DNA of 64,000 nt from a virus (Duplodnaviria; Heunggongvirae; Uroviricota; Caudoviricetes), in the IMG/VR virus record IMGVR_UViG_3300031853_000008, positions 1 through 64,000 of that record, one strand, 5' to 3'. A program made the position numbers and the translations under genes. Position 1 is the stretch's first letter. Every line of letters starts with the position of its first letter. The notes below the pieces were generated by a model. The model saw only the letters and a list, made by a program, of their open reading frames with translations. It was not told the DNA's origin and ran no database searches. Positions 8,192-63,376 of this stretch are shown here, piece by piece.

Positions 8192-8461
8192 TTATGCACA
8201 CTCTGCGTATTTCTTGAGCCTGTACCGAATATGTTTGTCCGCCGCCATCGCCTGTTTCGACGTGAGCGGGCTGAAGTTAATGTGTTTGTATCTTCCGCCC
8301 CACTTATCCAGAACGTGAATCGTAAAACAATCGCAGTTGTCTTTATGCCGGAAGGGGCAAGTTACACAGTTGTTTTTGTTCTCGCAAAAAGCAGCAACGC
8401 TTTCCATGTCTGTCATATCCTGTGGTGTAACTTTCAGATCAAACACTTCGTAAATGTTCAT
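8192..8461 (-). CDS. hypothetical Cys-rich protein (89 aa)
   Basis: ORF. Confidence 0.4.
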   Translation of the reverse strand: MNIYEVFDLKVTPQDMTDMESVAAFCENKNNCVTCPFRHKDNCDCFTIHVLDKWGGRYKHINFSPLTSKQAMAADKHIRYRLKKYAECA

Positions 8462-10015: not shown

Positions 10016-11062
10016 TCAGAATTCCATAATAAATAAATCATCTGCATATTTGCTGAATTTGACCTTGCTTCTCTTATATCTCTTAAAATCGTCAAGAGTA
10101 ACAAATGCCTTGTCCGGCACCCCCATCCTACGACGCATCCACTTCCCTAGCAGGGCATTTGATTCTGCCGTCTGAATGCCTTTATTGTTTTGTTGGGCAA
10201 CTCTCATATACATCATCCCCATATCCGGGGTGAAAGCTTTAAATAGTTTACAGTTCTTATCTGATTCATGCATTCTTCCAGGGAAGAATCCATCTTTTCT
10301 ATCTTTACTATTATATGGAATATAAGCTTCATCACGATTTCTATTATATTTTTGCGACCTAAACCCCCAGTTGGGGCCAGATACTTCTCCTACCTTGCCG
10401 CTACTTTCAAGCCACGATACTTCGATGACATCTATTGGCGTTCTCTTCTTTAATTCTTCATAAGTAATATTCTCTAGTTTCCCCAACTCAAGTTCTTCGG
10501 CTGAGATGACCTTATTTGAGAATTTAATTTTGCTCAGTAAGTCTTTATCGAAACAATCAATTGTGTCTTCTAATAATGAGTCGTAATATTCTGATACGTC
10601 TTTAGCCGGGCAGTCTGTCATCACTTCTCGCCTATTTTGAAATGCATAGATGCTGTAATTTGCCGATCCAACAAACGCCTTTACAGGCTCATTCCCACGT
10701 AGCCACACATATGTTTTTGAATGGACATTTGCATTCCTATAGACATATCGTAAATTAATGTGGAGATTATTCGGTTTGATACTGTTCAGCTGATTAAGTG
10801 TCTTAATGATATTTGTGTGTTTATTTGCGTTAAGTCCGCTCCCTTTATACATACCTAATATGACATCGACATAGATATGACGATTGTATTTACCCTTGCG
10901 CCCCTGTTCCCCTTGTAGCTGAAGAATATGGGTGTTAATCATATCACAATCCGTGAAGCCTGTAACGATTTCAAGATGATCACAGTTATCTCCATCAATG
11001 ATTGCCGGGTCATACAATATCTGCTGCTCAAAGTCATGTGTCAAAAACATAAAAGCCCTCAC
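10016..11062 (-). CDS. PLD-family (HKD-like) nuclease, putative restriction endonuclease partner of the adjacent C5-MTase
   Basis: Two HxK...GSxN-like segments (RHIYVDV..GSGLNAN and VHSKTYVW..GSANYS). 4-nt overlap with the MTase gene. Confidence 0.35.
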   Translation of the reverse strand: MRAFMFLTHDFEQQILYDPAIIDGDNCDHLEIVTGFTDCDMINTHILQLQGEQGRKGKYNRHIYVDVILGMYKGSGLNANKHTNIIKTLNQLNSIKPNNLHINLRYVYRNANVHSKTYVWLRGNEPVKAFVGSANYSIYAFQNRREVMTDCPAKDVSEYYDSLLEDTIDCFDKDLLSKIKFSNKVISAEELELGKLENITYEELKKRTPIDVIEVSWLESSGKVGEVSGPNWGFRSQKYNRNRDEAYIPYNSKDRKDGFFPGRMHESDKNCKLFKAFTPDMGMMYMRVAQQNNKGIQTAESNALLGKWMRRRMGVPDKAFVTLDDFKRYKRSKVKFSKYADDLFIMEF

Positions 11063-12108
11063 TCTGATAAGTTAGGTTCTACAAAGGGATAATAGATTCC
11101 CGCAAAGCTATTTAATACCGCCGTTGTAACTATATTGCTTAATCTACAGGGGACCGCCATTCCTATCTGTCTGCGGACACTTGAATATTTTCCAACAAAC
11201 TCATAGTCATCTGGGAAGGTTTGGATTCTTGCCCTTTCCCTGTTGGTTAGTTCTCTGTCCGTCCAGTGGTAGCCGAACGTCCCGCCCCCACCTGAAGCAG
11301 TTATTGTATAGCTCGGTTTGTTGGGATCTAGCTTCCTGTATATCTGAGAAATTTTTGTTCTTGTTTTGATTCTAAGTTCTTCGGGCATCCGTTTCTCGGC
11401 TTGCCACACATTCTCACTAGGTTCTATGTAAGACAACCGCCTAACCACCTTATCACTCAATACTTTTATCTCATTATTTGGGGCATCCGCGGGAATACTA
11501 GATAATGCTGTTCTAGCAGAGATATCTCTCTTGTATTGGATAGGGGATGGCACCTTGAAATCCACATTTATATCATCTCTTACGCCTACTATTATAACTC
11601 TGTGGCGGGTCTGCGGGACCCCATACTCTTCTGCTTTGTATAGGTTTGTTGTGAGTTTGTATCCCGACTCACGAAGATCATTCAAGATGATTTGAAAATC
11701 ATTTCCTCCCGCCGACCTTATGCCGGATACATTTTCAGCTATGAACCAATCTGGCTGATAGATTCTGAGGGCTTCTACTCCATACCAGTAAAGCTGCCCG
11801 AATTTTTCGTTTGCGAGTCCTTTATGCTCCCCCACATTCGAAAAGCTATTGCATGGAAACCCATACGCAAAAGCATCTATTTTGCCAAGCGAAGATATGT
11901 CTAGGTTTCTGACATCTCCACAGATAACACTCTCTCTGTTATCAGGGCAAATGTTGTTCCTATAGGTTTCGCAAGTATCTGAGTCGTAATCATTTGCCCA
12001 AGCATGAGAGATTCGAAGGCTTCCGTCATCGCTCTGAGCATGTAACGCACCGTATGCAAGCCCACCCGGGCCGCAGTATAGTTCCCCTAGTTTATATACT
12101 TTTCCCAT
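11059..12108 (-). CDS. DNA (cytosine-5)-methyltransferase
   Basis: Motif I YCGPGG, motif IV GFPCNSFS, motif VI ENV. Confidence 0.75.
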   Translation of the reverse strand: MGKVYKLGELYCGPGGLAYGALHAQSDDGSLRISHAWANDYDSDTCETYRNNICPDNRESVICGDVRNLDISSLGKIDAFAYGFPCNSFSNVGEHKGLANEKFGQLYWYGVEALRIYQPDWFIAENVSGIRSAGGNDFQIILNDLRESGYKLTTNLYKAEEYGVPQTRHRVIIVGVRDDINVDFKVPSPIQYKRDISARTALSSIPADAPNNEIKVLSDKVVRRLSYIEPSENVWQAEKRMPEELRIKTRTKISQIYRKLDPNKPSYTITASGGGGTFGYHWTDRELTNRERARIQTFPDDYEFVGKYSSVRRQIGMAVPCRLSNIVTTAVLNSFAGIYYPFVEPNLSE

Positions 12109-12754: not shown

Positions 12755-13717
12755 TTACTCACAGTGCTTAACTCTTTGTTCCGTTTCTTGTTGTTTCCCG
12801 GCATTAAATGCGGTTTTATAATCCCCCGTTAAGTAGCCTGTCACTCTACGAAGTCTCCGAATATTCGTACTTCCACAAACAGGACATGCGTCACCGATTT
12901 CATCTGTGTATCCACAATTCATGCACATATCATTTGGAAGATTAATTGCAAAATATGGAATATCATGATCCATAGCATAATTTACAATTTCCTCCATTGC
13001 ATCAATGTTATGTTTGGCTGTAGATTTCAGTTCTACATATGTAATGCATCCAGCATTTGAATATCCAGTAAGTTGTGATTCAATGTCTATCTTCTCGAAA
13101 GGATTCATATCTTCCCAAACACTGCAATGAATCGAATTCGTGAAATATTCACGGTCAGATACATCTTTAATCACGCCATACTTATCTCTGAATTTTTCAA
13201 GAGCAGTGTGGCACAGATTCTCTGCGGGCGTGTAATAAACTCCAAAATTCAATTTATATTGCTGCTTGAATTCTTTGCATCTCTTACTGAACAACTCTTC
13301 GATCCTCTTGGCAAGATCCATCCCAGTAGGAGTTGTTTGGTCACACCCAATCAAGATTCTAAGAGTTTCTGCAAGTCCAAGTTGCCCAAGAGCAAGAGTC
13401 CCATGTTTCAATGCAGATTGAATTCCCTCTTCGGGATGATATCCATACATCGTTCCGTTCTCATACATAAACTTTGCGGAGTCAGGTGACTGGGAACAAA
13501 TCCAGTTGTATCTTTCAATCAGCATATCTTTTCCTTCATGAATTTTCTTATCTAGAATTTCCATGAAATTCTCTACAATATCCCCATCCTTCTCTTTCGC
13601 TTCCATAGCGAGTGTTGGAAGAATGATTGTTACAGGGCAGATGTTGCCTCGCCCATCTTTCAACTGAGGGTTGACCCCAGGTTCAGCATTAATGTCATAT
13701 CCATTGTACGTCCTACA
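12755..13717 (-). CDS. nrdD: anaerobic ribonucleoside-triphosphate reductase NrdD, exon 2
   Basis: Carries the C-terminal glycyl radical motif RRVTGYL and a CxxC zinc site. Joins exon 1 as STMG|CRTYNG. Confidence 0.7.
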   Translation of the reverse strand, partial: CRTYNGYDINAEPGVNPQLKDGRGNICPVTIILPTLAMEAKEKDGDIVENFMEILDKKIHEGKDMLIERYNWICSQSPDSAKFMYENGTMYGYHPEEGIQSALKHGTLALGQLGLAETLRILIGCDQTTPTGMDLAKRIEELFSKRCKEFKQQYKLNFGVYYTPAENLCHTALEKFRDKYGVIKDVSDREYFTNSIHCSVWEDMNPFEKIDIESQLTGYSNAGCITYVELKSTAKHNIDAMEEIVNYAMDHDIPYFAINLPNDMCMNCGYTDEIGDACPVCGSTNIRRLRRVTGYLTGDYKTAFNAGKQQETEQRVKHCE

Positions 13718-14465
13718 CATTTTATCTTGTGTCGCCACAGGCACTGACTATATCTTCTACCTTCCAGTAGCCTTCCGCTTCGGGGCGGTGTCCATCTCCG
13801 CCCCTACTCCCTTACATTCATCAGGGATAGTCGATACACTTTACATATACTCAAAGTTGTAATTATAGTGATTAGTCTTTTTGTCACCCTTTAATATAGA
13901 AGTAATTGTTTTCCTGTTTAATCCAAGTTGATTCGCGCATTCTCTGATGCTAGAGAATTCTTTTATTTCATTTGTATCTTTTGAAGTTGCCCTAATTGGG
14001 CATTTTCTATGCTATGGGTACAATCCCATGTCGTAAGCTTCTTGCGTATTGTATGCGTTAGTACACCATTCCAAATTTTCAATTGAATTATTTAATTTAT
14101 TCCCATCTTTATGATTTATCATTGGCAGAACATCAGGATTCGGAATAAATGTTTCTGCTATTAATCGATGCAATCGTATGTATTTTTTCTTTTTATTTAT
14201 CCGAAAACTTGTCATGTAATAGCCTAGGGAATCAATCCACCTACTTAACTTATGGAAACTTCCGTTCTTTAGCTTTTTATATGCATACTAGCTATCAACA
14301 TAAATATTAGGATATTTAGTTTCTTTCATTGTGGTCTCCTTTTCCACAACATCTGAGTATATGTCTTAGCACGGTCTCATCTTATTTCAAAGACCTAACC
14401 GTTAGCCCTTTCGGACACCCTTGGACAAGGTTCAAAAGGTTTTAGATGAGCTGTAGTTTACGCTT
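13718..14465 (-). other. group I intron in nrdD carrying an HNH homing endonuclease ORF
   Basis: Exon 1 ends in U and the intron ends in G. 3' core has R-like CGACTAT, a GGGGCGG..CCGCCCC hairpin (P8-like) and S-like GAAGATATAGTC. Splicing restores the conserved NrdD sequence. Confidence 0.6.
13841..14215 (-). CDS. HNH homing endonuclease (intron-encoded) with one in-frame TAG at 14012..14014
   Basis: HRLIAETFIPNP..NHKDGNKLNN HNH motif. After the TAG the same frame continues into the conserved NUMOD-like C-terminus (IKEFSSIRECANQLGLNRKTI) and ends at TAA. Confidence 0.6.
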
Positions 14466-15695
14466 ACCCATCGTTGATACATAAGTTCTGGGGTCATTCC
14501 TGTCATACCCCGCATTAACACTCCAATCTACATTACAATAGTTTGGATATAACCGCTTTGCCGTTGATTTAAGTGCAAGCCTATAAAGATCATAGTTCGG
14601 ATCTCCCGGCTTGCGATTTACCCCTTTCATACACTGAAAAATCCCGCATGGAAAAATAGGAGTCCGATGAAGAGCGCCGATTCCTTCAATAGAAACATCA
14701 AGAAGGGCTTTCGTTACCATTCTCCCTTCTGGCAAGGTGCATGTTCCGTAATTTACAGATGTAAATGGTAATTGGTTTCCAGATCTACTTTGAAGGGTAT
14801 TTAAATTATGGTACATCCCTTCAACCGCCTGATATGTTTCCTTTCGCGTCATATCCATAGCGTATTTATACGCTTTGTCATGGCTTCGATAAAAAGCATC
14901 ATCTATTCTTTTATCAATATCAAAGAATGCGTCTTCTAATCGAACTCTTTGTTCAATATATTGTATTCCATCTTTGAAATGCTTCCAGAACGATTTACGA
15001 ACATATGGCACCATAGTCCAATCAATATGCGATGCCGAGCAACCCCCGAATTCTTGCAAACTTTGGAGCTGGAATAGAACTGCAACAAGCTGAAAAGCAG
15101 TGTTAATGCTTTGAGCTGGCCTTACATCAGTTTGTCTAGTGTTAAATCCTTTTGCGAGGAGATCATCAAAAGGAATAGTCAAACAATTGTGCATTCCCAC
15201 CGCGTAAGCATCAAGATCGTGTATATAAATCTCATTATTCAGATGATTATTACGAGACATCTCACTCATACAATAATCAAGAGCATACTGTTTCATTAAC
15301 GTAGAACTTGCCTCGCCTCTTCTCCCCCCAAAACTCTTTTCATCAACATTCGCATTTTGATTCTGCACATTGCTTGCATCAATCTTTTCTGCGATTGTTC
15401 TCATCATTCGACTGTTTTTTTCTCTGGCAAGCCTTCTGTTTTCTCTATAAATAACAAATGCTTTTGCTACATCTTTACGGTTGCTTGACATCAACTTATT
15501 TTCAATAATGTCTTGAATATCTTCAACAGACATATCTTTTCCGCTATCGGAAATTAGCTTGGATATTTCAGTGGCCTTATCCCTCGTATACTTCGTCGTT
15601 TCCCCATCAACTTCTGTAAAAGCCTTGATAATCGCGTCCTTCACTTTTTGTCGATCAAACTCAACTACTCTTCCGTCACGTTTCTTTACTTTCAT
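14466..15695 (-). CDS. nrdD: anaerobic ribonucleoside-triphosphate reductase NrdD, exon 1
   Basis: Starts MKVKKRDGRVVEFD (ATP-cone). RBS AGGAAG. Confidence 0.7.
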
Positions 15696-15753
15696 AACTT
15701 CCTCTCTTCCTTGTGTATTCCAACAGTTACTATAATGAACCGCAAAACGGTTA

Positions 15754-16605
15754 TTATGCCTTGTAAATAACGTCCATTCTGTGTATCTTCCCACCACCGT
15801 TTCTTCTTACGGTAGAAGCATCACGGTGCCAAATCGGCATGACAAAGTCATACATAGAAAAATACACGGGGAATCTCTGTTCTGTCGCCCAATGAACAAA
15901 ATCAAAAAAATCATCAAGATTATCCTTAGAAATGTCACAATAAACTATATCCCCAGGCTGATATTGATATTTGCGGTAGTCCATTGTTGTCATTTCAAGA
16001 TTGTTTCTTAAATCACCTATACCAGCTAAACTCTGTAGGGACTCGATTCTCTCAAGCCCCTCACATCTCATAGCAGACAAGTTTTTCAACTCTTTCTTAT
16101 GAACGGTTACGCAGTTATTAAACTCAGCCCGCCGCGACACCCAATCTTTTGCTTTTACATATTCGGCGATATCGGGGAGCGTTCCCTTGATAAAACTCTC
16201 ATATCGTCCATTGACAATATACTCGTGGATCGCCTTTTTCCAATCTTCTGTGTTGTAGCTGAAAGCATAATCCTCTCCGTTGCAACTAAAAGACCAATTC
16301 CATTTAATAAAGGCATCCTTGTCTCTTTTGTTGGCGAATTCTGTTCTTTCGATGAATGGCGGATCATAGATATCCGGCAGATATTTTCCATCCATTACGT
16401 CATTCAAATACGGAAGCCAAGTGCTATCCCTGTCGTTATATAAAACTTTCCCCCACTTTTTACTCAATAATGCACAGTGGGAGATTGCGAACCCCCCGCC
16501 ACAGATATCAACTAAGCGATTTCCATTTGGCAGAGCGTTCACAATATCTTCAGCTAATTTTGACTTGCTTCCTTTACAAGGAACTCCATACCTACTTGCC
16601 CTCAT
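15754..16605 (-). CDS. DNA N6-adenine methyltransferase (Dam-like)
   Basis: GGG motif (VDICGGGF) and DPPF catalytic motif. Confidence 0.55.
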   Translation of the reverse strand: MRASRYGVPCKGSKSKLAEDIVNALPNGNRLVDICGGGFAISHCALLSKKWGKVLYNDRDSTWLPYLNDVMDGKYLPDIYDPPFIERTEFANKRDKDAFIKWNWSFSCNGEDYAFSYNTEDWKKAIHEYIVNGRYESFIKGTLPDIAEYVKAKDWVSRRAEFNNCVTVHKKELKNLSAMRCEGLERIESLQSLAGIGDLRNNLEMTTMDYRKYQYQPGDIVYCDISKDNLDDFFDFVHWATEQRFPVYFSMYDFVMPIWHRDASTVRRNGGGKIHRMDVIYKA

Positions 16606-16850
16606 CCTGTTACCCCATGCGTCTTTAGTTTGTTCTTGAAATTATTGATAGCTTCGTTATCTGTGCTTATCGGGATTACATCAACTTCACTCCCTATAAA
16701 CATCATAAGCCCCAGGATTGAAGCCCCATCCACACAGTAGCGACCTTTACACACATCTACAGGGAACGGGGCCTTCCTGCAAATACTATTGATCTGCCCA
16801 ATATTGTCTTCAGTTAAAGTTATTTTCACGCTAGTCCTCCCACGCATCAA
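16602..16850 (-). CDS. HPr-like phosphocarrier-fold protein
   Basis: VDGASILGLMMFIGSEVDV resembles the HPr KSIMGVMSLG region. The canonical His15 context is absent. Confidence 0.35.
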   Translation of the reverse strand: MMRGRTSVKITLTEDNIGQINSICRKAPFPVDVCKGRYCVDGASILGLMMFIGSEVDVIPISTDNEAINNFKNKLKTHGVTG

Positions 16851-17000
16851 TCCAAGGGTTCATGTCTTGCTCGGAATCTTCCATATCCCCATCAACTCTG
16901 ATTCCGCAATAATCGCATTCCCAATGCCCGAATCTATAAGCCATTACAATTCCGCATTCCGGGCAATATACTTTGTTCTGCATAGACATCACCCCGCATT

Positions 17001-17366
17001 CTACTTACAGGATTTAGTCAGATAATCTTCTATATTGTCCCAAAGACCAGTACTACAATATCCTTTAATGCTTTGTGCATCTTCCAGTTCGATAACTGTC
17101 ATCAATGCGTAATTTGCCATGTCCATCAATGTATCCCGGATACTTTCATCCCCCGAATCAACCGAATCATTCTTTGCCAGATTTACAAGCCTGTTATATT
17201 TATCTGATATTCTTGTAACGGCGGACATAAGCCCCAATGATTTATAAGTCCTTGAAAAACTGTCACCGTATGCTTTGTTTTTTTGTATATATGTTTTGTG
17301 TAACTCGTCACACAATATTTTATGTTTCTCTGTTTTTGAAACCATTTCTATAATCCTCCGTTTCAT
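17001..17366 (-). CDS. hypothetical protein (121 aa)
   Basis: ORF. Confidence 0.4.
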   Translation of the reverse strand: MKRRIIEMVSKTEKHKILCDELHKTYIQKNKAYGDSFSRTYKSLGLMSAVTRISDKYNRLVNLAKNDSVDSGDESIRDTLMDMANYALMTVIELEDAQSIKGYCSTGLWDNIEDYLTKSCK

Positions 17367-17886
17367 TTTTATAGTTCTCAGATCCTATGAATCCGCAACA
17401 TCTCATTTCCGGGCAAAATCCTCTGTATTCACATTCCGGCACCATACAATCGGCAAGTTCAGGCTCGACCGTGCGGACAGCCTCTACAACCGCCCTCCAA
17501 GCCCCTCTCGTCTCGTTTGCGGCCTGACTGCATAACCTCTTCCTGCTTATATTAATAAGCGCCTGTGCGTTCGCTAGGAGTGTCAGACAGACGCTTGCGT
17601 TCTGTGGGAGGTTATTTCTATCTATTCCAGTTCTATCGGTTCTCTCTGTTGAGACGTATGGAGTCACCCCGATGTGGTGGCGCACTAGATGCATTGCCAC
17701 CCAGTAAGGAATATCATGGATTCTTATCGTCAACTCGATATACCTTATAGGAGAATGCTCTGCTCTAAGTATCTTACTCTTCCATGTAGAGGAAGGATAC
17801 TTTCCTGTTTCCTTCCCCACGGTATTCATGGCGGCGTTTTTCACTTCCTGCCAATGGTCTTGATAGTTCAAAATCTCTACGTTCAT
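17320..17886 (-). CDS. thyX: flavin-dependent thymidylate synthase ThyX-like (short)
   Basis: AEHSPIRYIELTIRI ... RHHIGVTPYVSTER resembles the ThyX signature. Confidence 0.5.
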   Translation of the reverse strand: MNVEILNYQDHWQEVKNAAMNTVGKETGKYPSSTWKSKILRAEHSPIRYIELTIRIHDIPYWVAMHLVRHHIGVTPYVSTERTDRTGIDRNNLPQNASVCLTLLANAQALINISRKRLCSQAANETRGAWRAVVEAVRTVEPELADCMVPECEYRGFCPEMRCCGFIGSENYKNETEDYRNGFKNRET

Positions 17887-19922
17887 GCCGTCTTATCCTT
17901 CCTTAAGTCCGACTTGTAAAGATACTGATAATCCAGTATCCAGAGTTCATTAGTGTGTGGAATCGGCACCCAATTACCATTTTCATTGGCTCTTCTCTTC
18001 GGTTTATTCATATAGTTCCCAAGTTTTATCACATCTCCTTCAACAAGAGAATGATTAATAAATTCCTTCTTTGGGACTTTGAATGAATAATACCCAGAGT
18101 TTTTCAGAGAATATGCACTTATGATAGGCGTTGATTTTTTATCATCAACATCTCCGATAACACAAACTCCTGCCGCTTCCGGGTCCGTAACTGTTACGCT
18201 GTGCAGGATCTGCTGCTGATACGATGCCTTGTGAATCGCATCGAAATCCGTCACTTTTATCTTTTCAAGACCAGTTAGCATCCCTAACATATCCATCATC
18301 ATGTATGTGGCGGGAGTTTCTTTACCACAATACTTCTTAATTATATTTTCCCCGACCAGAAGATTTTTTACGCTACTTTTCTTTATTTGTTTTTTGAAGC
18401 GCTTATTTGCGTTATCATAAAGTTGCTCAAATGCTTTCAGTATTCCTAAAAGCTTCCTCGATGTACCGAACTCTGAAAAATAATCAATCTTAACAAGCTG
18501 CTCGATTGTTTTAAGCCCGATCCCAGTATTACTCTTGATAAATAAAATTAACGATGTAAATGTATCCCCATCAAAATCCTTTATCTTATACAATTCATCA
18601 GCTACTGTTTTCCCAAGTCCTTTGATTGCTGACAGGCTGGGGTTGATACAATGTGATTCTTTATCAATCGTAAACTGCCTGTTATCAAGCCGGAACTTAT
18701 AAGCACCTTCGTTTATCCCAAATGCCTTTTTCATTTCTGTCTTAAAGGCTACTACTTTATCTTTATCCCCTTTATCGGTGTACATCTGAAGCATAGTACA
18801 ATAAAACTCATACGGATAATGAGCTTTTGTATAGGCCCCATACACAGAATCATACGCATATGATACAGAGTGTGAGGCGTTAAACGAATACCTTGCGGAG
18901 GCTTCTACAATCGCCCAGGTCTTTTCGAATCCTCTCATAGATCCGACTTGTTTCATCCAACCTTCTGCTAATTTGGACTTAAGCTCTTCAAGTGCCTCTA
19001 GGGTGAATTTCTTTTTCGAAATCTTTTTAATAATGGCATAGGTTTCAGTTTGTGGAATGCCAAGCCATCCAAGATAACCCATTATTGACTCTTGATAAAT
19101 CATAAATTTCATAGAATCTTGTAATAAGTTATCTAATTCTTTTACCCCAGTTGTGTAATATTTTCTCTGAAGAAAAGTACTTAGCTGAGTTTTAAAGCCA
19201 GGGCGGAGTGCAGCGACAAAGGCACTCATCTCTCGCATATTCTTTGGTTTATACTCCATACAGGAATTTCTGCCAAAATCCGACTCACATTGATTAACGC
19301 CGCATGTGTAGCCTTTAGCGTAGATGTCCCAAGTTGCTTGATCACTCTCAACTAGTTCGTTCATCTCGTTAATAGAAGGTGTTGGAATTCCAACTTTCTT
19401 GAATATTTCATTAATGGCTAGCCACACATCAACCTTAAGTAAATCGTTCTTAAGATACTTGTATTTTTCGGCAACCATTCCATCTACAACGGTTGTTAAT
19501 ACATAATTTCCGTCACTGGTGGAACATCTAATAAGACCAATTTCGCTTTTAATATCACCGCCATAAATAAGATATCCACACGGGGCCTGTGACTTCGCGT
19601 TGATAATCTTCTGGTATTTTTTAGATTCGTCCAACATCTTATGATATTGTGGAGAAACATAATCATAGACGCTGATTGAATCCTTATCATCCGCACTAGC
19701 ATGTTTTAATGCTTTTTCATACTTAGCAAGCTGTTTTGTTACATTATTCGATGTTTCAAAATCAAGCCCCTGAGACTTCGCATACAACTTAAAGGCTGAT
19801 GATGCCTGTAACGGTTTATATGAAATCATCGGGTATGAATGCCCAGGAGTTCCATAAGCTTCTGTTAAGATATCATCCTGCGCTTTCGCAAATGGCTCAA
19901 CTGTCCCAAGGTTCATATCAAT
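17883..19922 (-). CDS. dnaE: DNA polymerase III alpha (DnaE-like), exon 2 (palm, fingers and C-terminal region)
   Basis: FNASHSVSYAYDSVYGAYTKAHYP matches the DnaE fingers motif. Begins IDMN.., completing the PDxDxD catalytic motif with exon 1. Confidence 0.7.
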   Translation of the reverse strand: MDMNLGTVEPFAKAQDDILTEAYGTPGHSYPMISYKPLQASSAFKLYAKSQGLDFETSNNVTKQLAKYEKALKHASADDKDSISVYDYVSPQYHKMLDESKKYQKIINAKSQAPCGYLIYGGDIKSEIGLIRCSTSDGNYVLTTVVDGMVAEKYKYLKNDLLKVDVWLAINEIFKKVGIPTPSINEMNELVESDQATWDIYAKGYTCGVNQCESDFGRNSCMEYKPKNMREMSAFVAALRPGFKTQLSTFLQRKYYTTGVKELDNLLQDSMKFMIYQESIMGYLGWLGIPQTETYAIIKKISKKKFTLEALEELKSKLAEGWMKQVGSMRGFEKTWAIVEASARYSFNASHSVSYAYDSVYGAYTKAHYPYEFYCTMLQMYTDKGDKDKVVAFKTEMKKAFGINEGAYKFRLDNRQFTIDKESHCINPSLSAIKGLGKTVADELYKIKDFDGDTFTSLILFIKSNTGIGLKTIEQLVKIDYFSEFGTSRKLLGILKAFEQLYDNANKRFKKQIKKSSVKNLLVGENIIKKYCGKETPATYMMMDMLGMLTGLEKIKVTDFDAIHKASYQQQILHSVTVTDPEAAGVCVIGDVDDKKSTPIISAYSLKNSGYYSFKVPKKEFINHSLVEGDVIKLGNYMNKPKRRANENGNWVPIPHTNELWILDYQYLYKSDLRKDKTA

Positions 19923-20187
19923 CCTTGCTACCCTCGGTTTCCCGATATTTATTAGGGGAGTAGACTATACCATTATCTCAATGAGATACCCATTGGTAGT
20001 CGTTGCAAGCTTTCCATTTAAGGACTATCTCTCAGGATTATCAAATCCTCAATCTTGTTACCATACTGTGGTGATTAGCCACACCGCGCTTCAGTTTCCT
20101 TTGCGTTTGGTAATTGAGGCTCTAATGACTTCCCCTGATATTCTGGGTTATTCAATACGGATCGCTCCGTAAGGCGACTATAAGTTA
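19923..20187 (-). other. group I intron (265 nt, no ORF) in dnaE
   Basis: Begins with TAA directly after exon 1 ...SLPD (last nt U) and ends in G. Contains GACTAC / P8 hairpin / TATAGTCTAC (P7-like). Removal restores SLPD-IDMN. Confidence 0.5.
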
Positions 20188-21498
20188 ATCGGGCAATGAT
20201 CTTGTTTTTAATATACGAACTTCGCTAAGAAAACGATCTGGGTAGAGTTTTACAGGAGATGTAAAACGGTCAACACTAGAAAATCCTAACAAAGAATTAA
20301 TGTAATACGATACCGCACTTCCTCTTCCTGTCTTCGTAATAACCCCGCCGTATTCTTTGCCGCGCTTAACCAACTCATAATCCAATAAGAAATAATCTGA
20401 CATATGAGTATTTATTACAGCGTTTAACTCATACTGAATGCCATCCTCGTATTCCTTCCATCTTGATGGATCAACGTGCTGCTTTTCTTTATCCCATGCA
20501 TCATAAATAATCGACTTTAACTTATTATCTTTCCATTCCTGTGACTTCCCTGGATACAGAGTTGGCAGCTTGATATCTTTCCCAAATGTGATATCATCAA
20601 AAGTTAAGATGATATCCGATGCATCAAGCATTTCATCTATCTCAGCTTCATTAAAAACACCCTGTTCGATTAATCTCTGCTTCGCCGTCTCTCGGTCGGG
20701 GTAATCCATGTACCACCCGACTTCATCCTCGTCATAAGTAAATCCGCGCCCCTCAAGATAATTATCTCTCTCAACGCTATCGGATTCATATATGTAGTGG
20801 CTGTCTAATCCGACAATCCATTTAATTCCATACTTATAATGTAACTCTTTTATGTGTTTATTAATATCTTTCTGTCTGTCTGTATTATGGCACTGGGTTT
20901 CCAAATAGAAACTGTCCCCAAAGTGTTTCCACAGCTTCATCGTAATATCATCAATGTCTTCGTACTGCCAGTACTTCACACAGGCCGTGGTTACCATCAC
21001 ATCTTCCGGCTTCAGTTGCTCTAACAACTCAAGATCAACTCTTGCCTGTCCGTAATATCCAGTGATATTTGCTTCGGAGAGGATACTATTTATCTCTCGC
21101 CGCCCCTGTTCATTCCGGGCCAGTAAGATAATGTGGCAGTTCGCCCTGTCTTTGCGGTACTTGGTTTCCGTGTTCCCCTTCTTATCGGTAACAGTATAAG
21201 GATATTCCTTTTGTCTGTCTTTTACCCAATAAGCTTCTGCTCCAAATACAAATTTTTGTTTTTGTTTATTATATTGTTCTTCCGTAATGTCGCCAATATC
21301 TAATCGAGCCTTAAGCTTTTGATTGAAATCGACGACGCTGTCATAATAAACATAATAGTTTGATTGAAAACCATGCTCTACAGTGCTAACTACTTGGCTT
21401 CCGACCTCAACATTTCTCTGGATGTACTTTTCAGGGGCAGTAGCGCAATCAATTACACAGCAGTTAGAAAACCAACTGTGTTTATGATAATTCTGCAT
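20188..21498 (-). CDS. dnaE: DNA polymerase III alpha (DnaE-like), exon 1 (PHP domain and first palm segment)
   Basis: HKHSWFSNCCVID..VEHG PHP motifs and GRGSAVSYYINS palm segment. Start 21498 with GGAGG RBS. Confidence 0.65.
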
Positions 21499-22261
21499 CC
21501 TCGTCCTCCATCTCTTTGTATAGGCAATCATTTCTAAAAGAACACAACCTATTACACCATAGGAACGATTTCTTAGCGGCAAATTCCTGGTCATTCTCGA
21601 TAAGATTTATTGTTTCAAGCACCCAGTTTTTGGTTTCTTCGCATTCATCTTCTCTATAGGGGATCTCTGTAATTGCTCCCTTATCAAGAAAATGATTCCA
21701 CGCAAGAGATTGTGCAGAAATACCGAATTTCTGTTTGACCCCCATAGCGTAAATGTAAAGTTGCTTTTTGTAATCGTTAAACTGATCAAGTTTACTCTTC
21801 AGCGGGGTGCCGTCTTTCTTTAGAAAATGACCACTACTCTTATGATCCACTATAATAGTCTCACCATTATTTTTATCCTCGATAATTAAATCAACACGCC
21901 CAATTATTTCATTTCCGTTCAGTTCAAACTCAACTGGGATCTCCGTCCCTAAAACTTTAAAATTTGCAAAAAACTTATCGATATCAAGAGTATCCAGGTA
22001 ATCGATAAATTGATCCTGTTTCGCAAGTACTTTTTCGATATCCGTATCTTCCGGGACTTCGGCTAAGAGATTATCAAGAGTATTCTGTTTTGCTTGCTCT
22101 ATTGTTTCTTTCCCAGAAAAAAGCATCTATAATTCATTATGGCAAAAGCTCCCGACAGCAGCCTGAAAGTTCTTTTCCTCGTACTGTTGTTCAACCTTAT
22201 GTAAATAATAGGCATATGGGCATTGTCTGTATTGGCTTAAACTACTGAAAGAATACTGCAT
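21482..22261 (-). CDS. PD-(D/E)XK Cas4/RecB-like exonuclease with in-frame TAG at 22127..22129
   Basis: N-terminus MQYSFSSLSQYRQCPYAY (44 aa, strong AAGGAGG RBS), then TAG followed immediately by ATG, then the D..EDK nuclease core and C-terminal CxxCxxxxxC. The N- and C-terminal Cys form the expected 4-Cys cluster only if TAG is read through. Confidence 0.55.
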
Positions 22262-22283
22262 CTATACCACCTCCTTGTTTTGT

Positions 22284-22312
22284 ATTATACTATATTAATA
22301 TATTCCTGTCAA
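22284..22312 (-). promoter_or_regulatory. sigma70-type promoter TTGACA-N17-TATAAT
   Basis: Exact consensus hexamers on the minus strand, upstream of the Cas4-like gene. Confidence 0.45.
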
Positions 22313-22320
22313 TATAATAT

Positions 22321-22351
22321 AAAAAAAGAGTGAGGATAATTCCCCACTCTT
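22321..22351 (-). terminator. rho-independent terminator after primase-helicase
   Basis: AAGAGTGGGGAATTATCCTCACTCTT hairpin followed by T7. Confidence 0.5.
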
Positions 22352-26043: not shown

Positions 26044-26061
26044 GAGATTCTCCTTATATAG

Positions 26062-26133
26062 TCACCCGGTGGGGATTCGAACCCCAGTCTTGAGGGTTAG
26101 GGCCTCTCGTCTTGACCACTCGACTACCGGGCG
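26062..26133 (-). tRNA. amber suppressor tRNA, anticodon CUA (reads UAG); charged amino acid unknown
   Basis: 72-nt cloverleaf: acceptor CGCCCGG/CCGGGTG, U8A9, D arm GTCG..GAC, T arm TGGGG-TTCGAAT-CCCCA, discriminator A. Anticodon arm GAGG/CCTC with loop CCCTAAC puts CTA at positions 34-36. Position 33 is C rather than U. Confidence 0.6.
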
Positions 26134-28297: not shown

Positions 28298-28410
28298 GAG
28301 GGCAGTGTGGGTTCGAACCACAAACATCGCCTTTCAAGAGGAAAATGTTTTGCTGTTAGCACCTATACAAGATGCGTATTTTCGTGCTCTACCATTGAGC
28401 TACTGCCCTC
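28298..28410 (-). ncRNA. Y-RNA-like tRNA mimic
   Basis: Perfect acceptor stem with G-1 (gAGGGCAG/CTGCCCT), U8A9, D arm GCTC-AATGGTA-GAGC, T arm TGTGG-TTCGAAC-CCACA. In place of an anticodon arm there is about 63 nt of extra helices. Lies 23 nt upstream of rsr. Confidence 0.5.
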
Positions 28411-28946: not shown

Positions 28947-31346
28947 CCCTCTTCGGATAAAATTCTTTTTATATTTTTCAAGGGTTCAATGAGAGTATTC
29001 AGTGCTATGCCGTTTCCCCACAACTTATATTCAGCTGAGTCGGAGTGTGGCACGTCGGCACACCAGTCATCTGGAAATCCCTGCAACCTAGCACATTCTG
29101 TCGGGGTCAATCTTCTCACAATATATTCATCTTCCATTACAAAATTCCTTCCATTATTTGTCATTACATAATGTTGTCCGTGACAATGGCTCGACCCCCC
29201 CCCACAAATACAGGGTGCCAACCCATCATCGCTACATATCTGCCTTGATTCGTGTTCCCACTGGTTCAATATCATTTCCGTTCCTCTTTACGAGAACATA
29301 ACATTCCGACCCACCCCATCTGCAATCGCCGCTATATAAAGCCCCACAGATTCCATCGGGCAAGAATATTGCCTTACTTTCTACGTCCCCTCTGTTTAGA
29401 TTTATTATCTTCAACATCGCTGTTCTCTACTCTATAGGCTACTGCGTGTACCTCTGTAATATTTAAGGTGTACATTACTTTGGATTCTTTATACCCTATG
29501 CCCTGATGGGATGGGCGGCAGCCATTTCCCTCAATTGCTACAGTCTCATCAGATATCATTTTCATATCATTTCCTTTGAAGCACCATCATCCCGCCTTGA
29601 TTACACGCAGGATTTCCACCGTTAAGATCAAGGGTCCTCGATGTTTCAATCTTCTGAATCCCGCTATAAGGGTTACTCGATTTCATGCAGTTGGAGCAAT
29701 ATGAAGATATATTATAAACAAGAAATTTTTGACTCTTGCTCTTTTCTAATACTATCGGAAGGTGTTGGTGCGTCTGCGCCCTCAATGTGCCTACTACATC
29801 TTCATATACTGTCATCTGACTCCCGCCTTGGTCATCTAACACAATCATTTTTCTTCCTCGTTATCAGTACCTGATCTTGAGAAACCCCAAGTGTGGCGGA
29901 AATATCTGTCTGAATCAAAAGCCCTTTCCCGGCAGTCCCCGTCTTTCCGTTCCACATGGTATATGTATTTGCCCCCCCTCTTATCTTAAGAGTATAGGCA
30001 TCTGCTCCCTAAATATATGGCATATCATTTTTCCTTCTTTAATAGTATAGCTGGCGGATCTTTATAATCATTCCAATGAAGAGTATACGCAACATTAATG
30101 TTCCGCCATCTGCACATCTGCCCACCCTGGTCGGTCATCCAGTACTTTTTATTACTGTCTTTTTTTATAAGCACGAGTGGAGTATTGTTCCCCCCAGTGC
30201 CATATCGAGCGGATACTGTGCATGCGATATCATATGGCCCAGTAACCCTAGAATCTCCTGGGTGGCTTTCGTAATATTGTGGCTTCATGATGATTCCTTT
30301 TTATTAACAATTACTATAGGAGTCCTATTCTCAGAATTATCAAATACATTTAATGTATCTGACACTTTTGTTTCTTCCCAAAGCTGTGGCTATCCTTTGT
30401 AATGGGAATGCGCTTTCTTATGAAAAGCGTAAACCACAGACATCTGATTGTCCCCGGGGTTACTCCTTAATGTTCCGCTCACTTTTTCATAGTAGTGGCC
30501 ACCACACCTTGACATAACCCCAGGTTCGAATGACATAGGTTCTGTTAATTTTTTTTTACATCATCCTCTGTTGATAATCCGGCTTGTTTCATTAATGCGT
30601 TCTTCAAGACTTCTGGAAGTTCCTTCCCACGACTTTCTGATCTCCTCAGTATTCCAAGACACGCTTTCGGGCTTAAATAATACTTCGGCTGCTCTTCTTC
30701 CATCAAGATCTGCGACAAGGTACACTCTCCGCCTTCTTTGGGCGGTACCGCCTCCGACGTGGCAAGCGTCCAAGGTACGCCAAGCGATTTGCCAGTCATC
30801 TCCGTCCAGAACTCCTGCGTAGTGCCATTTCCCTTCTGGAGGGAGAGGTACATTGGCACATCTCTCTTTAATTTGCGCCACTGTTTCGAGTACTGTTCTA
30901 AAGTCTGATCCTTTGTTGCTTGAGAATATCCCGGGGACATTTTCAAAACACCAGAATCTCGGATATCTTCCATTTGTTACCTCCCTCATTTCTTTTGCAA
31001 TTCGAACTGATTCATAAAATAGTCCACTCTGCTTTCCGGCCAGCCCTTCCCTATTTCCTGCAACGGAAATATTTGTGCATGGGCTTGAATTCGTAAACAC
31101 ATCAACTGGCGGGATTTTTGCCCCATCAATCTTTGTTACATCTCCAAGCTGAATACACTCAGGAAATCGTTTTGCTTCAAGTGCTACAGGGAACGGTTCA
31201 ATCTCTGATTCCCATAATGGCTTTATCCCGACCATCTTCCCAGCCAACTCCCATGTTCCAGCCCCTGAGAAAAGATTGCCTAATGTAATTTCCTTTTTGC
31301 TCATATTCTTACCTCCTGAACCATACATTATCATATTAATATCCAT
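28943..31346 (-). pseudogene. fragmented multi-TRD DNA (cytosine-5)-methyltransferase, split over at least 6 frames
   Basis: ORF 30561..31346 has motifs I (LFSGAGT), IV (SPCTNISVAG), VI (ENVPG) and VIII (QRRRRVYLVA). Downstream fragments carry repeated TRD-like T..R..G.GGN segments and a terminal IX/X (RLTPTECARLQGFPDDW, WGNGIA) in frames 0/1/2, with at least one TAG. Confidence 0.45.
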
Positions 31347-32767: not shown

Positions 32768-32773
32768 TTCCCC

Positions 32774-33997: not shown

Positions 33998-34034
33998 AGA
34001 AGAACTCCTTTCTTTAAGATATTATAGCACTAAA

Positions 34035-34586: not shown

Positions 34587-34602
34587 TTTATTTTTCCTCC
34601 TA

Positions 34603-58878: not shown

Positions 58879-58974
58879 AAGACCCGAACAGCAAATTTAC
58901 AGGATAAATTATGATGACATTGAACGGATATGAACTTGGTTCGTCCCCGTTCTTTCCCTTTTTTGGGTCTTGCG
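58879..58974 (+). promoter_or_regulatory. conserved leader element copy L1 upstream of the late operon
   Basis: TTAAGACCCGAACAGCAAA ... TTTTTTGGGTCTTGCG. The termini match L2 and L3 and are mutually complementary. Confidence 0.4.
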
Positions 58975-58997
58975 CCATGATTAAGGAGGGAAGCTAT

Positions 58998-60052
58998 ATG
59001 GCTTTTTTGAAAAAAGTCCTGCCATAGCAGGAAATGAAAAGGCTTACCCTCAAGCCCCTAAGAGAACAATATACTGCTTTGGGGTAGGCTTATAACAAAA
59101 TTATGAATTATGAACTTCCTTATTGTGTCAAATGTGGGACATTTGGAAGTGCTACTCTCTTCTATCAAGATAGCAGATTTGCGAATGGGTATTTCCCTAT
59201 TTGCAAAAAATGTATTATGAAAATGGTATAGAACAGATAGAAGGATGATGATGAACCACACGAAACGAAGGAATCCGTTGCTAAAGTATTGAAAATGATG
59301 GATCTTCCGTTCTTGGAAGACCTTTATGATTCTTGTGTAAAGGCTATTGAGGACGGAACTGAAAAGCGAGGGTCTAAATCTTCGTTTATTAATTATGTGT
59401 CCGCTATCCGTTCTCTCCCACAGTATCATCGTTTAACGTGGAAAGATTCTGATTATATTTCCCAAGAGAAGGAAATTGAGAACGACGCTGATAATGAGGA
59501 TATTCTTGAAAAAGCGAGAGAACATTTTGGAACAACTTATACTAATCAAGATTTGAAATTCCTTTAGACTCAATATGAAGACTGGACTGCCAGATATGCC
59601 TGTGAAAGTAAAGCACAGTAGATTTTGTTCCAGAGGGTATGCTTTATCCAATTAGCACTGGACAAGGCTCAAAAATCTGGGAAAGAAACGAAAGATCTTG
59701 ATAAACAGCTTCAGGATGTGTTGACATCGCTTCAGATTAAACCTAATCAGAGTAACTCTAATGCTCTTACGGAAGCAAAGACGTTTAGCCAGCTTATTGA
59801 GAAGTGGGAAGCTTAGAAACCTCTCCCTGAAATATAGGATGATTTTAAGGATGTTGATCATGTTGGGAGATATATTGATGTGTTCTTTAAAGGACATCTA
59901 TCCAAAATGATGGGGCTTAAGAATGCGTTTTCTTCTATGTATGATAAATTCATGAAAAAATATACTGTTAAGAAGCCGGAATATGATGAGGATACCGACT
60001 CTGAAGAATTGTTTGATAAAATATTTGGCAATCCTGTGGAGAATAGGTCATG
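58998..60052 (+). CDS. late protein with N-terminal zinc ribbon (candidate small terminase subunit); 8 in-frame TAG codons
   Basis: ATG with TTAAGGAGGG RBS. A single frame runs 58998 to 60052. Every interruption is TAG and the final stop is TGA. Confidence 0.45.
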
Positions 60053-60115
60053 AGTGACGCTAAGAAATCTGTTAAATAGATAGAGAAAACCAAATAGCGT
60101 AAAATAATGTAGACG

Positions 60116-61813
60116 GTGGCTTGGAGAGCAAGCTACTATCGTGAAAATCCTCATCGATTCGTTTCTGAAGTATTATTCCCAGATGGAACTTTTAAGTTGA
60201 AATTGTTTCAAAAGATTCTTCTTTGGGCAATGATGCACTACAACTTTATTATGTACTTGGCGGCGCGCGGCCAGGGGAAAACGATGATAACTGCGTTGTT
60301 TTGTGTCGTGAGATGTATCTTATATCCGGGGACAAAGATAATTGTAGTAAGCGGTACGTTGAAACAAGCGAATGAATTGCTGTTAAAGATACAAGATGAA
60401 TTTATGCCGAAATCACCATTCCTATGTAATGAAATATAGTCTTGTAAAATTGGGCAGAATGACGCATCAATTTATTTTCGAGGAAATTCATGGATTAAAA
60501 CTCGCACAAGCACTTAGAACTCTCGTTCCGCAAGAGCAAATATTCTTATAGCGGATGAGTTTCGCATGATAGATTAGAAGATATTGAACACAGTTCTTCG
60601 AAAGTTTCTGACAAGCCCTCGTGAACCTGGATATTTGAATAACCCAGAATATACTCATTTAAAGGAACGCAATAAGGAAATTTATATGAGTTCTGCGTGG
60701 TTTAAGTCATCTTGGGCATATGAAAAGGCTATTGGATATACTAAGAATTTTTTCGATGATACAAAGAAATATTTTATCTGCGGGCTTCCATATCAGTTAT
60801 CTATTATGGAGGGCTTGCTTATGAAAGAACAAGTGCAGGATGAGATGAGCTAGCCGGATTGGAATGATTTATTGCAGTCGATGTAGATGGAATGCACCTG
60901 GATAGGTGATGTTGGAGATAATTTATTTCATTTTGATGATTTCAATAATAGACGGGTATTGAAGAGTTCTTTTCTTCCATTGAAATATTATAATGATAAT
61001 AGAAAAGTGCCATAGCCTCATTCAAAAGGGAAAAGGGTATTATCTCTTGATGTAGCTTTAATGAAATCATCAAAGTCTAAAAAAAATGATGCCTCAGCAT
61101 TATTCATTAACGATCTTACACCATCTACTAATACGAGTTATCATTCAAATATCGTTTATGCTGATACATTCGAGGGGTTAACAACTGACTAGCTTGGCTT
61201 AATTGTGATGAGATATTTTTATAAATATAAATGTACTGATTTAGTTATAGATACCAACGGTATCGGTTTAGGTGTCTATGACTTTTTATGTCGTGATCAA
61301 TATGACCCATCGACTGGGGAAACCTATCAAGCTATGACTTGTGCTAATGATCCAGATATGGCTGAGAGATGTCGTGTATAGGGGGCTAACAAGGTTATTT
61401 GGAGTGTAAAAGCAACCGCTTCATTTAACAATGATATTACTATTTTGCTCCGTAATGCTATATTAAATGGACGGATTAGCTTTCTTATATCTTAGGATGA
61501 TGCGGATGAGCCACTCAAAGATAAGCTTAAAGGATATGCAAAGCTGACCCCAACGGAACAAGCATTGTTAAAGAAACCTTACGCTCAGACAACTATGACA
61601 GAGTATGAACTCATAAAACTCAACCACTAGGTAAAGAATGGCAATATTAAAGTTTATTAGAGTTCTGGAATGCGCAAGGATCGCTACAGTTCATTATCGT
61701 ATAATTATTGGTGTGCGACTCAGCTTGAACTTAAGCTACGACCTAAAGAGTCACACGACAAACTTATCAGTTACTTTCCGATAAGGAAAGCAAGAGTTTA
61801 TAAATCATTTTAA
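60116..61813 (+). CDS. terL: terminase large subunit; 11 in-frame TAG codons
   Basis: GTG start. Walker A AARGQGKT, Walker B ILIADEF, nuclease-domain motif VIDTNGIGLGVYD, C-terminal KDRYSSL. One frame throughout, with interrupting stops only TAG (60437, 60515, 60575, 60851, 60884, 61013, 61184, 61379, 61493, 61628, 61658). Terminates at TAA. Confidence 0.75.
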
Positions 61814-61825
61814 GGAGGTGCATGA

Positions 61826-63376
61826 ATGCCACAAAATAGTGATAAGGTGTCAACTGCACCTACTAAGAAACAGCCTACTTCTGCGGAACTTCGCAAATGG
61901 TATGCGAATTATTCAAAGAAACAATAGAATTTTGATTCTATGAAAAATGCTTTGAAACGGCTTACTGATATTACGAAAAGTAGAAAAGAAAGAACTATTA
62001 ATACATTCTCAAAAGAGGATCTCAGAACTTATCTGAGAAATATAAGTTCCAGTGAAAAGCAGTTAAGAAATCTTTCGAGATATCTGTACTACCGTTCTCA
62101 TAGTTATTATAGAATCATTAACTATTATGCCAATATGTTTGACCTAAAAGCAAGGTCGGTTATTCCTACATATGATTTCACAAAAAATAAACAGGATGCG
62201 AAGAAGGTCACAAAACAGTTCTATACGACTTTGACTTATCTAGATCAAATGAACCTTCAGTATGAGTTCCTTAAAATATATCTCACTTGTTATAGGTAGG
62301 ATGTATTCTATGGTTGCCTGTACTGGGATGATACCGACTTCTTTATTCTCCCGTTGGACCCGGATTTTTGTAAAATTTCTGGCGTTTATGGGACAGGAGA
62401 CTTTTCATTCGCTTTCGACTTCTCCTATTTCAGAAATAGACAGGACGTTCTCGAATACTGGGGTGAGCCATTCCAATCTATGTATAACACATATGAGAAT
62501 GATACCACCAACAATAGGTGGCAGGACTTCCCGGAAGAATACTCTGTTTGCTTGAAAGCAAGGGCATAGGATTGGCAGACCGTAGTGCCCCCGTTCTCAG
62601 GGCTTTTTAATGAGATTATCAATCTTGAGGATCTGAAAGATATTCAGGCGGTGGCAGATGAGTCGCAGATTTACAAGCTTCTCTGGTTCGAACTTAAAAC
62701 CATCACAGGGTCGAAAGATGTTAATGATTGGGCGGTTGATCCAGACCTTGCTTTGGATTATTACGATAAACTTCAGAATGAGATTCCTGAGTGGGCTGAT
62801 GTTGCGATGGTTCCTGGGGAACTCAAGTCTATCGAGTTCAATCAAGACCAGGCGGATGATACAAACAAGGTATAGAAAGCTACTGAAAGTGTATTCAATA
62901 CTTCCGGCGGAGCGCAGATTCTTAATGCTGCTTCTATCTCTGGGACAACAGCTTTTACTGCCGCGATTGCGTCTGATACTGAATTTGCCGTTTCTCTCCT
63001 GTTGCCACAGACTTAGGCTTGGGTGAATCGTATGCTTTCGTATAAGATGAATAACCCCGCAAAGGTGAAATTCTTTGAGATAAGCATCTATACGAGAGAT
63101 AAGTTAAGAGATGCTCTTCTCAAGTCGAGTCAGTTCGGGCTTCCAAATAAACTTGCCATTAATACCCTGTTTGGATATTCCGAGAAAGATACAATGGCGA
63201 TGAATTTCCTTGAAGAGAATTGCTTGCAAGTCAGCACTAAATTTACTCCACTCCAGTCTTCCTATACAAGGAGTGCGGATGTTGACACAGATTCTATTAC
63301 AGGGGGAAGACCATCTAGCACATAGATAACAGATGACGGTGAAGCAAGCAAAGATAAGAGGGATAATGCGAAATGA
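61826..63376 (+). CDS. portal/connector-like late protein; 6 in-frame TAG codons
   Basis: AAGGAGG RBS. Four listed ORFs (61940, 62354, 62585, 63023) plus flanks are all in frame 2, joined by TAG only. Terminates at TGA. Confidence 0.5.

Follow-up and report, generated by a model that had tools for sequence, protein, structure and literature searches.

A phage Cas4/AddB-type nuclease gene interrupted by an in-frame TAG is probably intact, with the TAG most likely read as glutamate

Can a gene that is cut by a stop codon, with a start codon directly behind it, still be whole, and is such a junction a regulatory device in its own right? The question is raised by a 64,000-nucleotide stretch of the viral record IMGVR_UViG_3300031853_000008 (hereafter the window), on the minus strand of which two open reading frames (ORFs) for parts of a Cas4-like nuclease abut as TAG-ATG. 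A preliminary description, made from the sequence alone, had joined the two ORFs into one nuclease and had proposed that the junction acts as a suppression-dependent switch, with the ATG deliberately starting a truncated core. The evidence assembled here makes it likely that the two ORFs are one intact Cas4/AddB-type nuclease gene, codon 45 of which is a sense TAG read as Glu by a phage-encoded tRNA with the anticodon CUA, tRNA(CUA). The elements of the junction are the following:

21482..22261, minus strand: a single gene for a 259-residue Cas4/AddB-type PD-(D/E)XK 'iron-staple' nuclease, with an unbroken PF12705 match and a PF01930 match above the cutoff
22127..22129, minus strand: TAG at codon 45, in frame and decoded as sense, most likely as Glu; it lies four residues past the conserved His41
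22124..22126, minus strand: the ATG of Met46, which adjoins the TAG and has no Shine-Dalgarno (SD) sequence; Met is rare at this column (3/138)

The locus is a single frame of 260 codons (22261..21482, minus strand) with one internal stop, beginning with the ATG at 22261. Codons 1-44 encode MQYSFSSLSQYRQCPYAYYLHKVEQQYEEKNFQAAVGSFCHNEL (22261 onward; begins MQYSF, ends CHNEL), and the ATG of Met46 is followed by 213 more codons and a TAA at 21484-21482. The TAG is therefore in frame with the ATG behind it, without a frameshift, as had been described. Gene calling under the standard code recorded only a 214-residue fragment of this protein (P0001).

Compared with the Pfam profile PF12705, the fused protein gives one unbroken match, residues 3-246 covering profile positions 2-246 of 247 (87.9 bits, cutoff 22, E=1.4e-24); the 44-residue piece alone matches positions 2-43 (25.8 bits, cutoff 22) and the core alone positions 59-246. 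Since one match runs across the junction, the split falls inside a single domain and the pair of ORFs is not a chance one. The fused protein also exceeds the cutoff of PF01930 (Cas_Cas4; 26.9 bits against 22.7), and its matches to PHROG 69/1218 are annotated 'exonuclease' and that to PHROG 1706 'CRISPR/Cas system associated'. A HMMER search returned 2,900 relatives, the best 149 representatives of which were aligned with the window protein (150 sequences). All of the 138 representatives that cover the TAG column are single polypeptides, and the close homologs (P0002-P0005 and L002-L010) are uninterrupted. The joining of the two ORFs into one nuclease is thus supported, and its counter-case, an N-terminal peptide that is separate or absent in homologs, is not borne out by these sequences.

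The alignment further shows that residues nearly invariant in the family lie on both sides of the stop: C14, G37, H41, E107, G121, D124, D139, K141, Q167, Y169, Y171, W213, C236, C240 and C246. The RecB motifs are present as D124, D139-x-K141 (D139 and K141 invariant) and Q167-x3-Y171 (at least 90% conserved). Conservation is likewise at least 90% for each of the four metal-ligand cysteines, one N-terminal (C14) and three C-terminal (C236, C240 and C246); C14 is thereby one of four nearly invariant cysteines, the point that the preliminary description had wished to see checked by alignment. The C-terminal triad is spaced C236-x3-C240-x5-C246 (Cx3Cx5C) and not CxxCxxxxxC, as had been read earlier. 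With C14 upstream of the TAG and the triad downstream, the full four-cysteine nuclease exists only if the TAG is decoded, so that part of the earlier proposal stands. In Cas4 and AddB, the same 1+3 'staple' arrangement occurs with CX2CX5C spacing, and every Cys-to-Ala variant of the Cas4 protein Sso0001 was insoluble (PMC3466216).

The fold was examined on an AlphaFold2 model of the homolog P0247 (38% identical to the window protein; predicted local distance difference test 96.2) rather than on the window protein itself. In this model the TAG site lies within a long alpha-helix (H42-58), and a Foldseek comparison with the PDB places AdnA (7sjr, E=7e-11) first, followed by RecE, ACE1 (Cas4 family), Exo5, AddB, Dna2 and Cas4 (4ic1). 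The window nuclease shares the RecB motifs and the 1+3 cysteines with the 'iron-staple' nucleases Cas4, AddB, AdnAB, Exo5 and Dna2, including the mycobacteriophage Bxb1-type 'Cas4 exonuclease', and phage homologs in GenBank are likewise annotated 'Cas4 exonuclease'. It differs from them in its in-frame TAG, in the Cx3Cx5C rather than CX2CX5C spacing, in its pairing with a Sak single-strand annealing protein (SSAP) and in standing outside a CRISPR-cas context; like 3L0A, it may carry Zn as its metal (PMC3466216). Inspection of the annotated proteins revealed no cas genes, and the neighbors belong to a recombination and replication module ordered Sak SSAP, SSB, primase-helicase, nuclease and PolIII alpha. 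The protein is predicted to be a solo phage-type (mobile genetic element) Cas4-family exonuclease, and it is probably the partner of the Sak SSAP.

If the TAG is a sense codon, the residue that it encodes should be visible in homologs. The nuclease column itself carries E in 92 of 138 sequences, A in 22 and Q in 11, within the local motif G-x3-H-x-[ILV]-L-E, and where the TAG-ATG junction falls, uninterrupted homologs read E-K or E-M. Decoding the TAG as Glu therefore yields the family consensus and leaves the gene intact. A larger sample of TAG columns is provided by the packaging genes:

58911..63376, plus strand: packaging genes for a YonG-like protein, the terminase large subunit and the portal, with 8, 14 and 6 in-frame TAGs, respectively

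An alignment of the terminase with 39 homologs of 64-69% identity gave 70% E and 3% Q over its 14 TAG columns, four of which were Glu in 38-39 of the 39 homologs. In the same alignment, which serves as its own control, E makes up 64% of the residues in GAA/GAG columns, whereas in CAA/CAG columns Q makes up 83% and E 4%. Conversely, of 28 terminase columns with at least 70% Glu in homologs, nine are TAG in the window phage, and no homolog carries Gln at more than one of these columns. The portal has six TAG columns: Glu is the majority in four and Gln in one, and the sixth is divided between Ala, Ser and Glu. Taken together, terminase and portal give 15 Glu-majority and one Gln-majority among 20 TAG columns. 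Genetic code 15 (TAG = Gln) was rejected on this count, given the 83% Q of the CAA/CAG controls. The YonG-like protein, used as a query for its eight further columns, found no related loci; tblastn against phages returned only SPbeta-type homologs that are 25-33% identical, too distant for per-column inference. TAG thus most likely encodes Glu here, an assignment from aligned columns that is statistical rather than absolute. At the protein level, the two readings of codon 45 would be told apart by the tryptic peptide across the TAG, NFQAAVGSFCHNEL[E/Q]MLFSGK, the E and Q forms of which differ by 0.984 Da.

The putative decoder lies 3.8 kb upstream of the nuclease on the same strand:

26061..26133, minus strand: phage tRNA with the anticodon CUA (amber suppressor), called by ARAGORN and matched by Rfam RF00005 (56.9 bits)

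Its body has C1-G72, G2-U71, A73 and a D stem of 3 bp; position 33, nearly always U in tRNAs, is an unusual C. The 16-nt D-arm has 81 exact matches in 185,579 species genomes; 79 are chance matches outside tRNAs, and the only two in tRNA genes are both in tRNA-Glu(CUC) of Selenomonadaceae, with which tRNA(CUA) is identical at 53 of 72 positions overall. A blastn search of tRNA(CUA) against GenBank phages gave no match, and a degenerate D-arm plus anticodon pattern found two chance matches and no tRNA in IMG/VR. The body of tRNA(CUA), with the D-arm of tRNA-Glu(CUC), agrees with a Glu identity.

The use of TAG follows a steep gradient along the phage. Expressed as TAG/(GAA+GAG+TAG), it rises from 0.3% (3/881) in the minus-strand block of early genes (64 genes, 45 kb) through 2.0% on the plus strand between 46.5 and 58.9 kb to 25.5% (28/110) in the packaging block at 58.9-63.5 kb, and structural genes past the window (L102, 13691-21098) carry 1-9 TAGs each. 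The near-absence of TAG from the early block reflects selection, because 321 GAG codons are found there. The nuclease is the sole non-mobile gene of this block that carries an internal TAG; the earlier statement that it is the only early-type gene to do so has to be amended, since a homing endonuclease has two. A further set of early ORFs carries TAG shortly before another stop:

14347..13841, minus strand: homing endonuclease (HNH_3 and NUMOD) in which two TAGs lie in frame, one in the stretch that separates its two Pfam domains
7972-8199, 16810-16992, 16989-17366, 29226-29417, 38006-38287, 39242-39520 and 40416-40571, minus strand: seven ORFs in which a TAG is followed by a near stop

In these seven ORFs the TAG stands 2-17 codons ahead of the next TAA or TGA. 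It probably still terminates them, with the near stop as a back-up that may limit extension once the suppressor is active; TAG may thus have a dual meaning in one genome. As a separate observation, the base after the 34 supported sense TAGs is A in 17, G in 9, C in 6 and T in 2 cases (purine in 26/34), compared with purine in 58% after GAA/GAG in late genes; this excess may be a context bias favoring suppression over termination.

How could such a gene be expressed? A very strong host-type promoter would drive transcription of the nuclease, and a very strong ribosome-binding site its translation. While the host release factor 1 (RF1) wins at UAG, ribosomes would release the 44-residue peptide; once tRNA(CUA) is expressed and charged, presumably by the host glutamyl-tRNA synthetase (GluRS) and without conversion of the product by GatCAB, the 259-residue enzyme would be made. 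Production of the nuclease would thereby be tied to the code switch of the phage, and its dependence on suppression is consistent with temporal gating. It is thus plausible that expression of the nuclease depends on the suppressor and is biased to late times, as one case under the known recoding model rather than through a bespoke stop-restart device. The wider proposal, in which a tRNA-Glu-derived suppressor is charged by host GluRS and ignored by the Gln amidotransferase, TAG means stop early and Glu late, and the nuclease (in a related phage also the Sak SSAP) is deliberately placed under the code switch, is favored with some reserve.

The signals that would drive this expression, together with the adjoining elements, are:

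22268..22276, minus strand: SD sequence AAGGAGGTG of the true start codon, 9 nt
22284..22312, minus strand: sigma-70-type promoter TTGACA-17-TATAAT, heading the transcription unit of the nuclease and PolIII alpha
22326..22351, minus strand: intrinsic-terminator-like hairpin with an 11-bp stem and a T-run, closing the upstream primase-helicase unit
20185..21498, minus strand: N-terminal part of PolIII alpha (PHP domain), the downstream gene, the start of which overlaps the 3' end of the nuclease by 17 nt and is served by a GGAGG of its own

The strong ribosome-binding site and consensus promoter noted previously were both recovered. An SD match of 9 nt is reached by just two of 78 annotated gene starts in the window, the nuclease included, and the promoter is the sole 12/12 sigma-70 consensus in the 64 kb on either strand. 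A 9-mer, TATAGATGC, shared by the true start and the internal ATG was considered as a motif and rejected, its third copy not being at a gene start.

The alternative that survives best, unlikely as it is, holds that TAG-ATG is a selected stop-restart junction, a purpose-built switch at which ribosomes terminate and reinitiate early, the full nuclease following after the code switch. The restart would either give a distinct 214-residue product or keep the operon mRNA translated, protecting expression of PolIII alpha downstream. The stop codon abuts the start codon, and such an arrangement is known to permit termination-reinitiation. However, neither an SD sequence, the score for which is at background level, nor another restart element precedes the internal ATG, and the polymerase gene, which comes next with its 17-nt overlap and could have been a beneficiary, has its own GGAGG. 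The rarity of Met at column 46 (3/138) speaks for a selected start, but a Met stands at this position in the uninterrupted homolog P0004 (LEMLFS) and in L011 and L012 (LEMTFK). Likewise, a sense TAG directly followed by ATG occurs in two of the 34 supported cases, the other being a plain Glu-Met in the terminase (M-TAG-M-E); two of 34 fits the frequency of Met, so the adjacency is not beyond chance. The string TAGATG is not enriched either, its 23 and 17 occurrences being mostly out-of-frame ATA-GAT. A core starting at Met46 would be without C14, G37 and H41, each of which is kept in at least 90% of the family, and Cys-to-Ala variants of the Cas4 protein Sso0001 were insoluble (PMC3466216). 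A functional truncated core is therefore not supported by this sequence analysis, nor is the idea that the ATG deliberately starts one.

Homologs with internal stops, from other recoded phages, bear on the same alternative from both sides. In L011 and L012 the nuclease has in-frame TAGs, one of which aligns with the Q of QxxxY; in L095 and L098 a TAG is found at codon 43, and in L013 and L099 a TGA at codon 67. One of these, L098, is a contig of Logan SRR28623932 from a related phage with the same integrase/MrpR/Sak/DnaB/DnaG/nuclease/PolIII layout, and its in-frame TAGs both align with Lys in the window orthologs:

L098, 6352-7041: Sak SSAP with a TAG at codon 50
L098, 9845-10636: nuclease with a TAG at codon 43

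These two are the only sizeable early genes of L098 with N-terminal TAGs, its DnaB, DnaG and PolIII alpha being without TAG, and in L099 an internal TGA is confined to the nuclease, a recurrence that favors a specific design, as do the window's only perfect sigma-70 promoter and an SD match that ranks among the two longest. Yet the stops of L011, L012, L095, L098, L013 and L099 all stand at columns other than that of the window, with no adjoining ATG, and the homologs with internal stops were found via their truncated ORF calls, which makes them a biased sample. The proposed suppression-dependent switch is thus retained in one respect, as the full enzyme depends on suppression, and abandoned in the other, as a site-specific switch at TAG-ATG is not supported when the stops of homologs lie elsewhere.

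It is decidedly unlikely that a GAG of a dispensable or decaying nuclease gene drifted to TAG by nonsense mutation, a change masked late by the suppressor and without regulatory meaning. TAG is one substitution away from GAG, Glu is the consensus of the column and the suppressor is present; the contigs that carry the TAG are nearly clonal (99.985-100% identical), so that they do not speak for long-term retention. On the other hand, the catalytic and metal-ligand residues are all intact, with no further stops or frameshifts, and a Glu-inserting suppressor gives the consensus residue and hence no decay. The remaining 62 genes of the block also strongly avoid TAG, although the block has 321 GAG codons; a TAG is therefore costly there unless a gene is needed only late.

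Very improbable is a two-subunit nuclease, in which the 44-residue peptide and the 214-residue core would be synthesized as separate chains and associate around the metal cluster without a covalent link. Complementation is conceivable, since in this fold family the N-terminal cysteine and the C-terminal triad come together in space. However, the break falls in the middle of a helix in the P0247 model, the second piece has no ribosome-binding site, and the phage decodes TAG, as the terminase and portal columns show. Additionally, the upstream DNA of three truncated calls in the family was read and revealed no separate N-terminal peptide (two mis-called starts and one recoded TAG); P0287 and P0280, considered as further split genes, were rejected as mis-called starts without a stop upstream. 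Finally, the probability that an error of sequencing or assembly gave rise to the TAG is virtually nil, because the same TAG is found in independent assemblies: in L001 (ENA ERZ27291693; 99.985% identical) and in a 112.8-kb ENA contig from ERZ27256883, a different sample, to part of which the window is identical; three contigs that carry the identical 214-residue core ORF were read.

Several points weigh against the preferred reading of the locus as an intact gene with a sense TAG read as Glu under the code switch. Readthrough at codon 45 and its timing are inferred from sequence, and so are the fate of the truncated products, the competition with RF1 and the charging of the tRNA. A search of 5.8 billion proteins found no relatives between 41% and 100% identity (the best IMG/VR match is 39%) in which conservation of the codon-45 TAG could be seen. 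The only perfect promoter and one of the two longest SD matches are also compatible with a more specific regulatory design. As for the Glu assignment, one portal TAG aligns with Gln (36/42), and two terminase TAG columns are Lys-majority, followed by Arg or Asp. The tRNA(CUA) has the atypical C33 and C1-G72 pair, and about 74 kb of the 112.8-kb contig were inspected, so that another suppressor could lie in the other approximately 39 kb.

The window phage resembles known recoded phages (crAss-like, Lak, Garnet/Topaz and phAss-1; 10.1101/2021.08.26.457843; PMC9523058; PMC10607447) in concentrating TAGs in packaging and structural genes, in keeping its replication genes compatible with the standard code, in encoding its own tRNA(CUA) and in having some genes with a single in-frame stop, for which a role in delaying translation until the code switch has been proposed in those phages (10.1101/2021.08.26.457843; PMC9523058; PMC10607447). 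As in mosaic coding, its recoded stops are enriched late and depleted early, and a matching suppressor tRNA is encoded. In contrast to the recoded phages, its TAG columns align with Glu and not with Gln, TAG still appears to serve as terminator in about seven early ORFs, and the phage is SPbeta-like, with homologs of YonG, YonF, YonJ, YonD, YonB and YomU and probably a Firmicutes host. For phages with a code other than that of the host, Borges et al. report that they saw no changes but TAG to Gln or TGA to Trp (bioRxiv 10.1101/2021.08.26.457843), and the TAG of phAss-1 was assigned Gln in its published study. Literature searches found no report of TAG to Glu in a phage, an absence that is no proof of novelty; relative to the known recoded phages, the most likely Glu meaning is the new element.

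Other systems offer partial parallels. In the nuclear code of peritrich ciliates (NCBI table 30), TAA and TAG are read as Glu. Both cases assign a stop to Glu, but the ciliate code is eukaryotic, nuclear and genome-wide and covers TAA and TAG, whereas in the window phage TAG alone is affected, in some genes, and is decoded in trans by a phage tRNA. In Q-beta A1, in MuLV gag-pol and in amber mutants on suppressor hosts, the full-length product likewise needs decoding of a stop. As in these systems, the balance between the short and the long product of the nuclease gene would be set by competition between suppressor and release factor; those systems rely on near-cognate host tRNAs and have functional short products, whereas here the short product is a 44-residue domain fragment and the decoder a dedicated phage tRNA.

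Some further features of the window touch on the genes named above. PolIII alpha itself lies in two ORFs (17883-21498, minus strand) that match residues 6-392 and 386-1049 of the single-chain enzyme of L098; the spacer of about 245 nt between them (about 19944-20187) has no homology and no Rfam match, and the layout is either a split gene or an unrecognized intervening element. NrdD is also split, into an N-terminal part at 15797..14442 (profile 2-265) and a C-terminal part at about 13720..12755 (profile 263-562), both on the minus strand, and the HNH/NUMOD homing-endonuclease gene sits between them; Rfam found no intron in this region (12755-15797). On the plus strand, group I introns at 53114-53356 and 53691-54007 (Rfam RF00028; 76 and 91 bits, respectively) directly follow a 586-residue ORF (51401-53161; phrog_8308) and flank a small ORF (53437-53703), and the region is probably a multi-exon late gene. 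Besides tRNA(CUA), there are two tRNA-like genes on the minus strand: one of 91 nt at 4248-4338, with a 2-nt 'anticodon' according to ARAGORN (Rfam tRNA, 37 bits), and a 112-nt Rfam tRNA match at 28298-28409 (42 bits), which ARAGORN did not call and which may contain an intron. An NgoFVII-type restriction endonuclease paired with a C5 cytosine methyltransferase (10016-12108, minus strand) and a tyrosine integrase with an MrpR-like recombinase (31817-35565, minus strand) fit a temperate SPbeta-like phage with its own restriction-modification system.

An apparently 'broken' nuclease thus probably represents an intact gene in a phage-specific code, with consequences for annotation. Published surveys and tools assume that TAG is Gln (code 15); if TAG is Glu, a code-15 translation would misplace a residue at every TAG in this lineage, and the reassignment would be one unreported for phages. 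The rule that phages exploit only the glutaminyl- and tryptophanyl-tRNA synthetases for a change of code would then be incomplete, and it would become possible to test a route through GluRS, which may be linked to hosts with indirect synthesis of Gln-tRNA. For the phage itself, recombination-dependent replication would begin only once late translation is enabled, and the single TAG in a strongly expressed gene of the replication module would be a natural one-codon reporter of the timing of the code switch.

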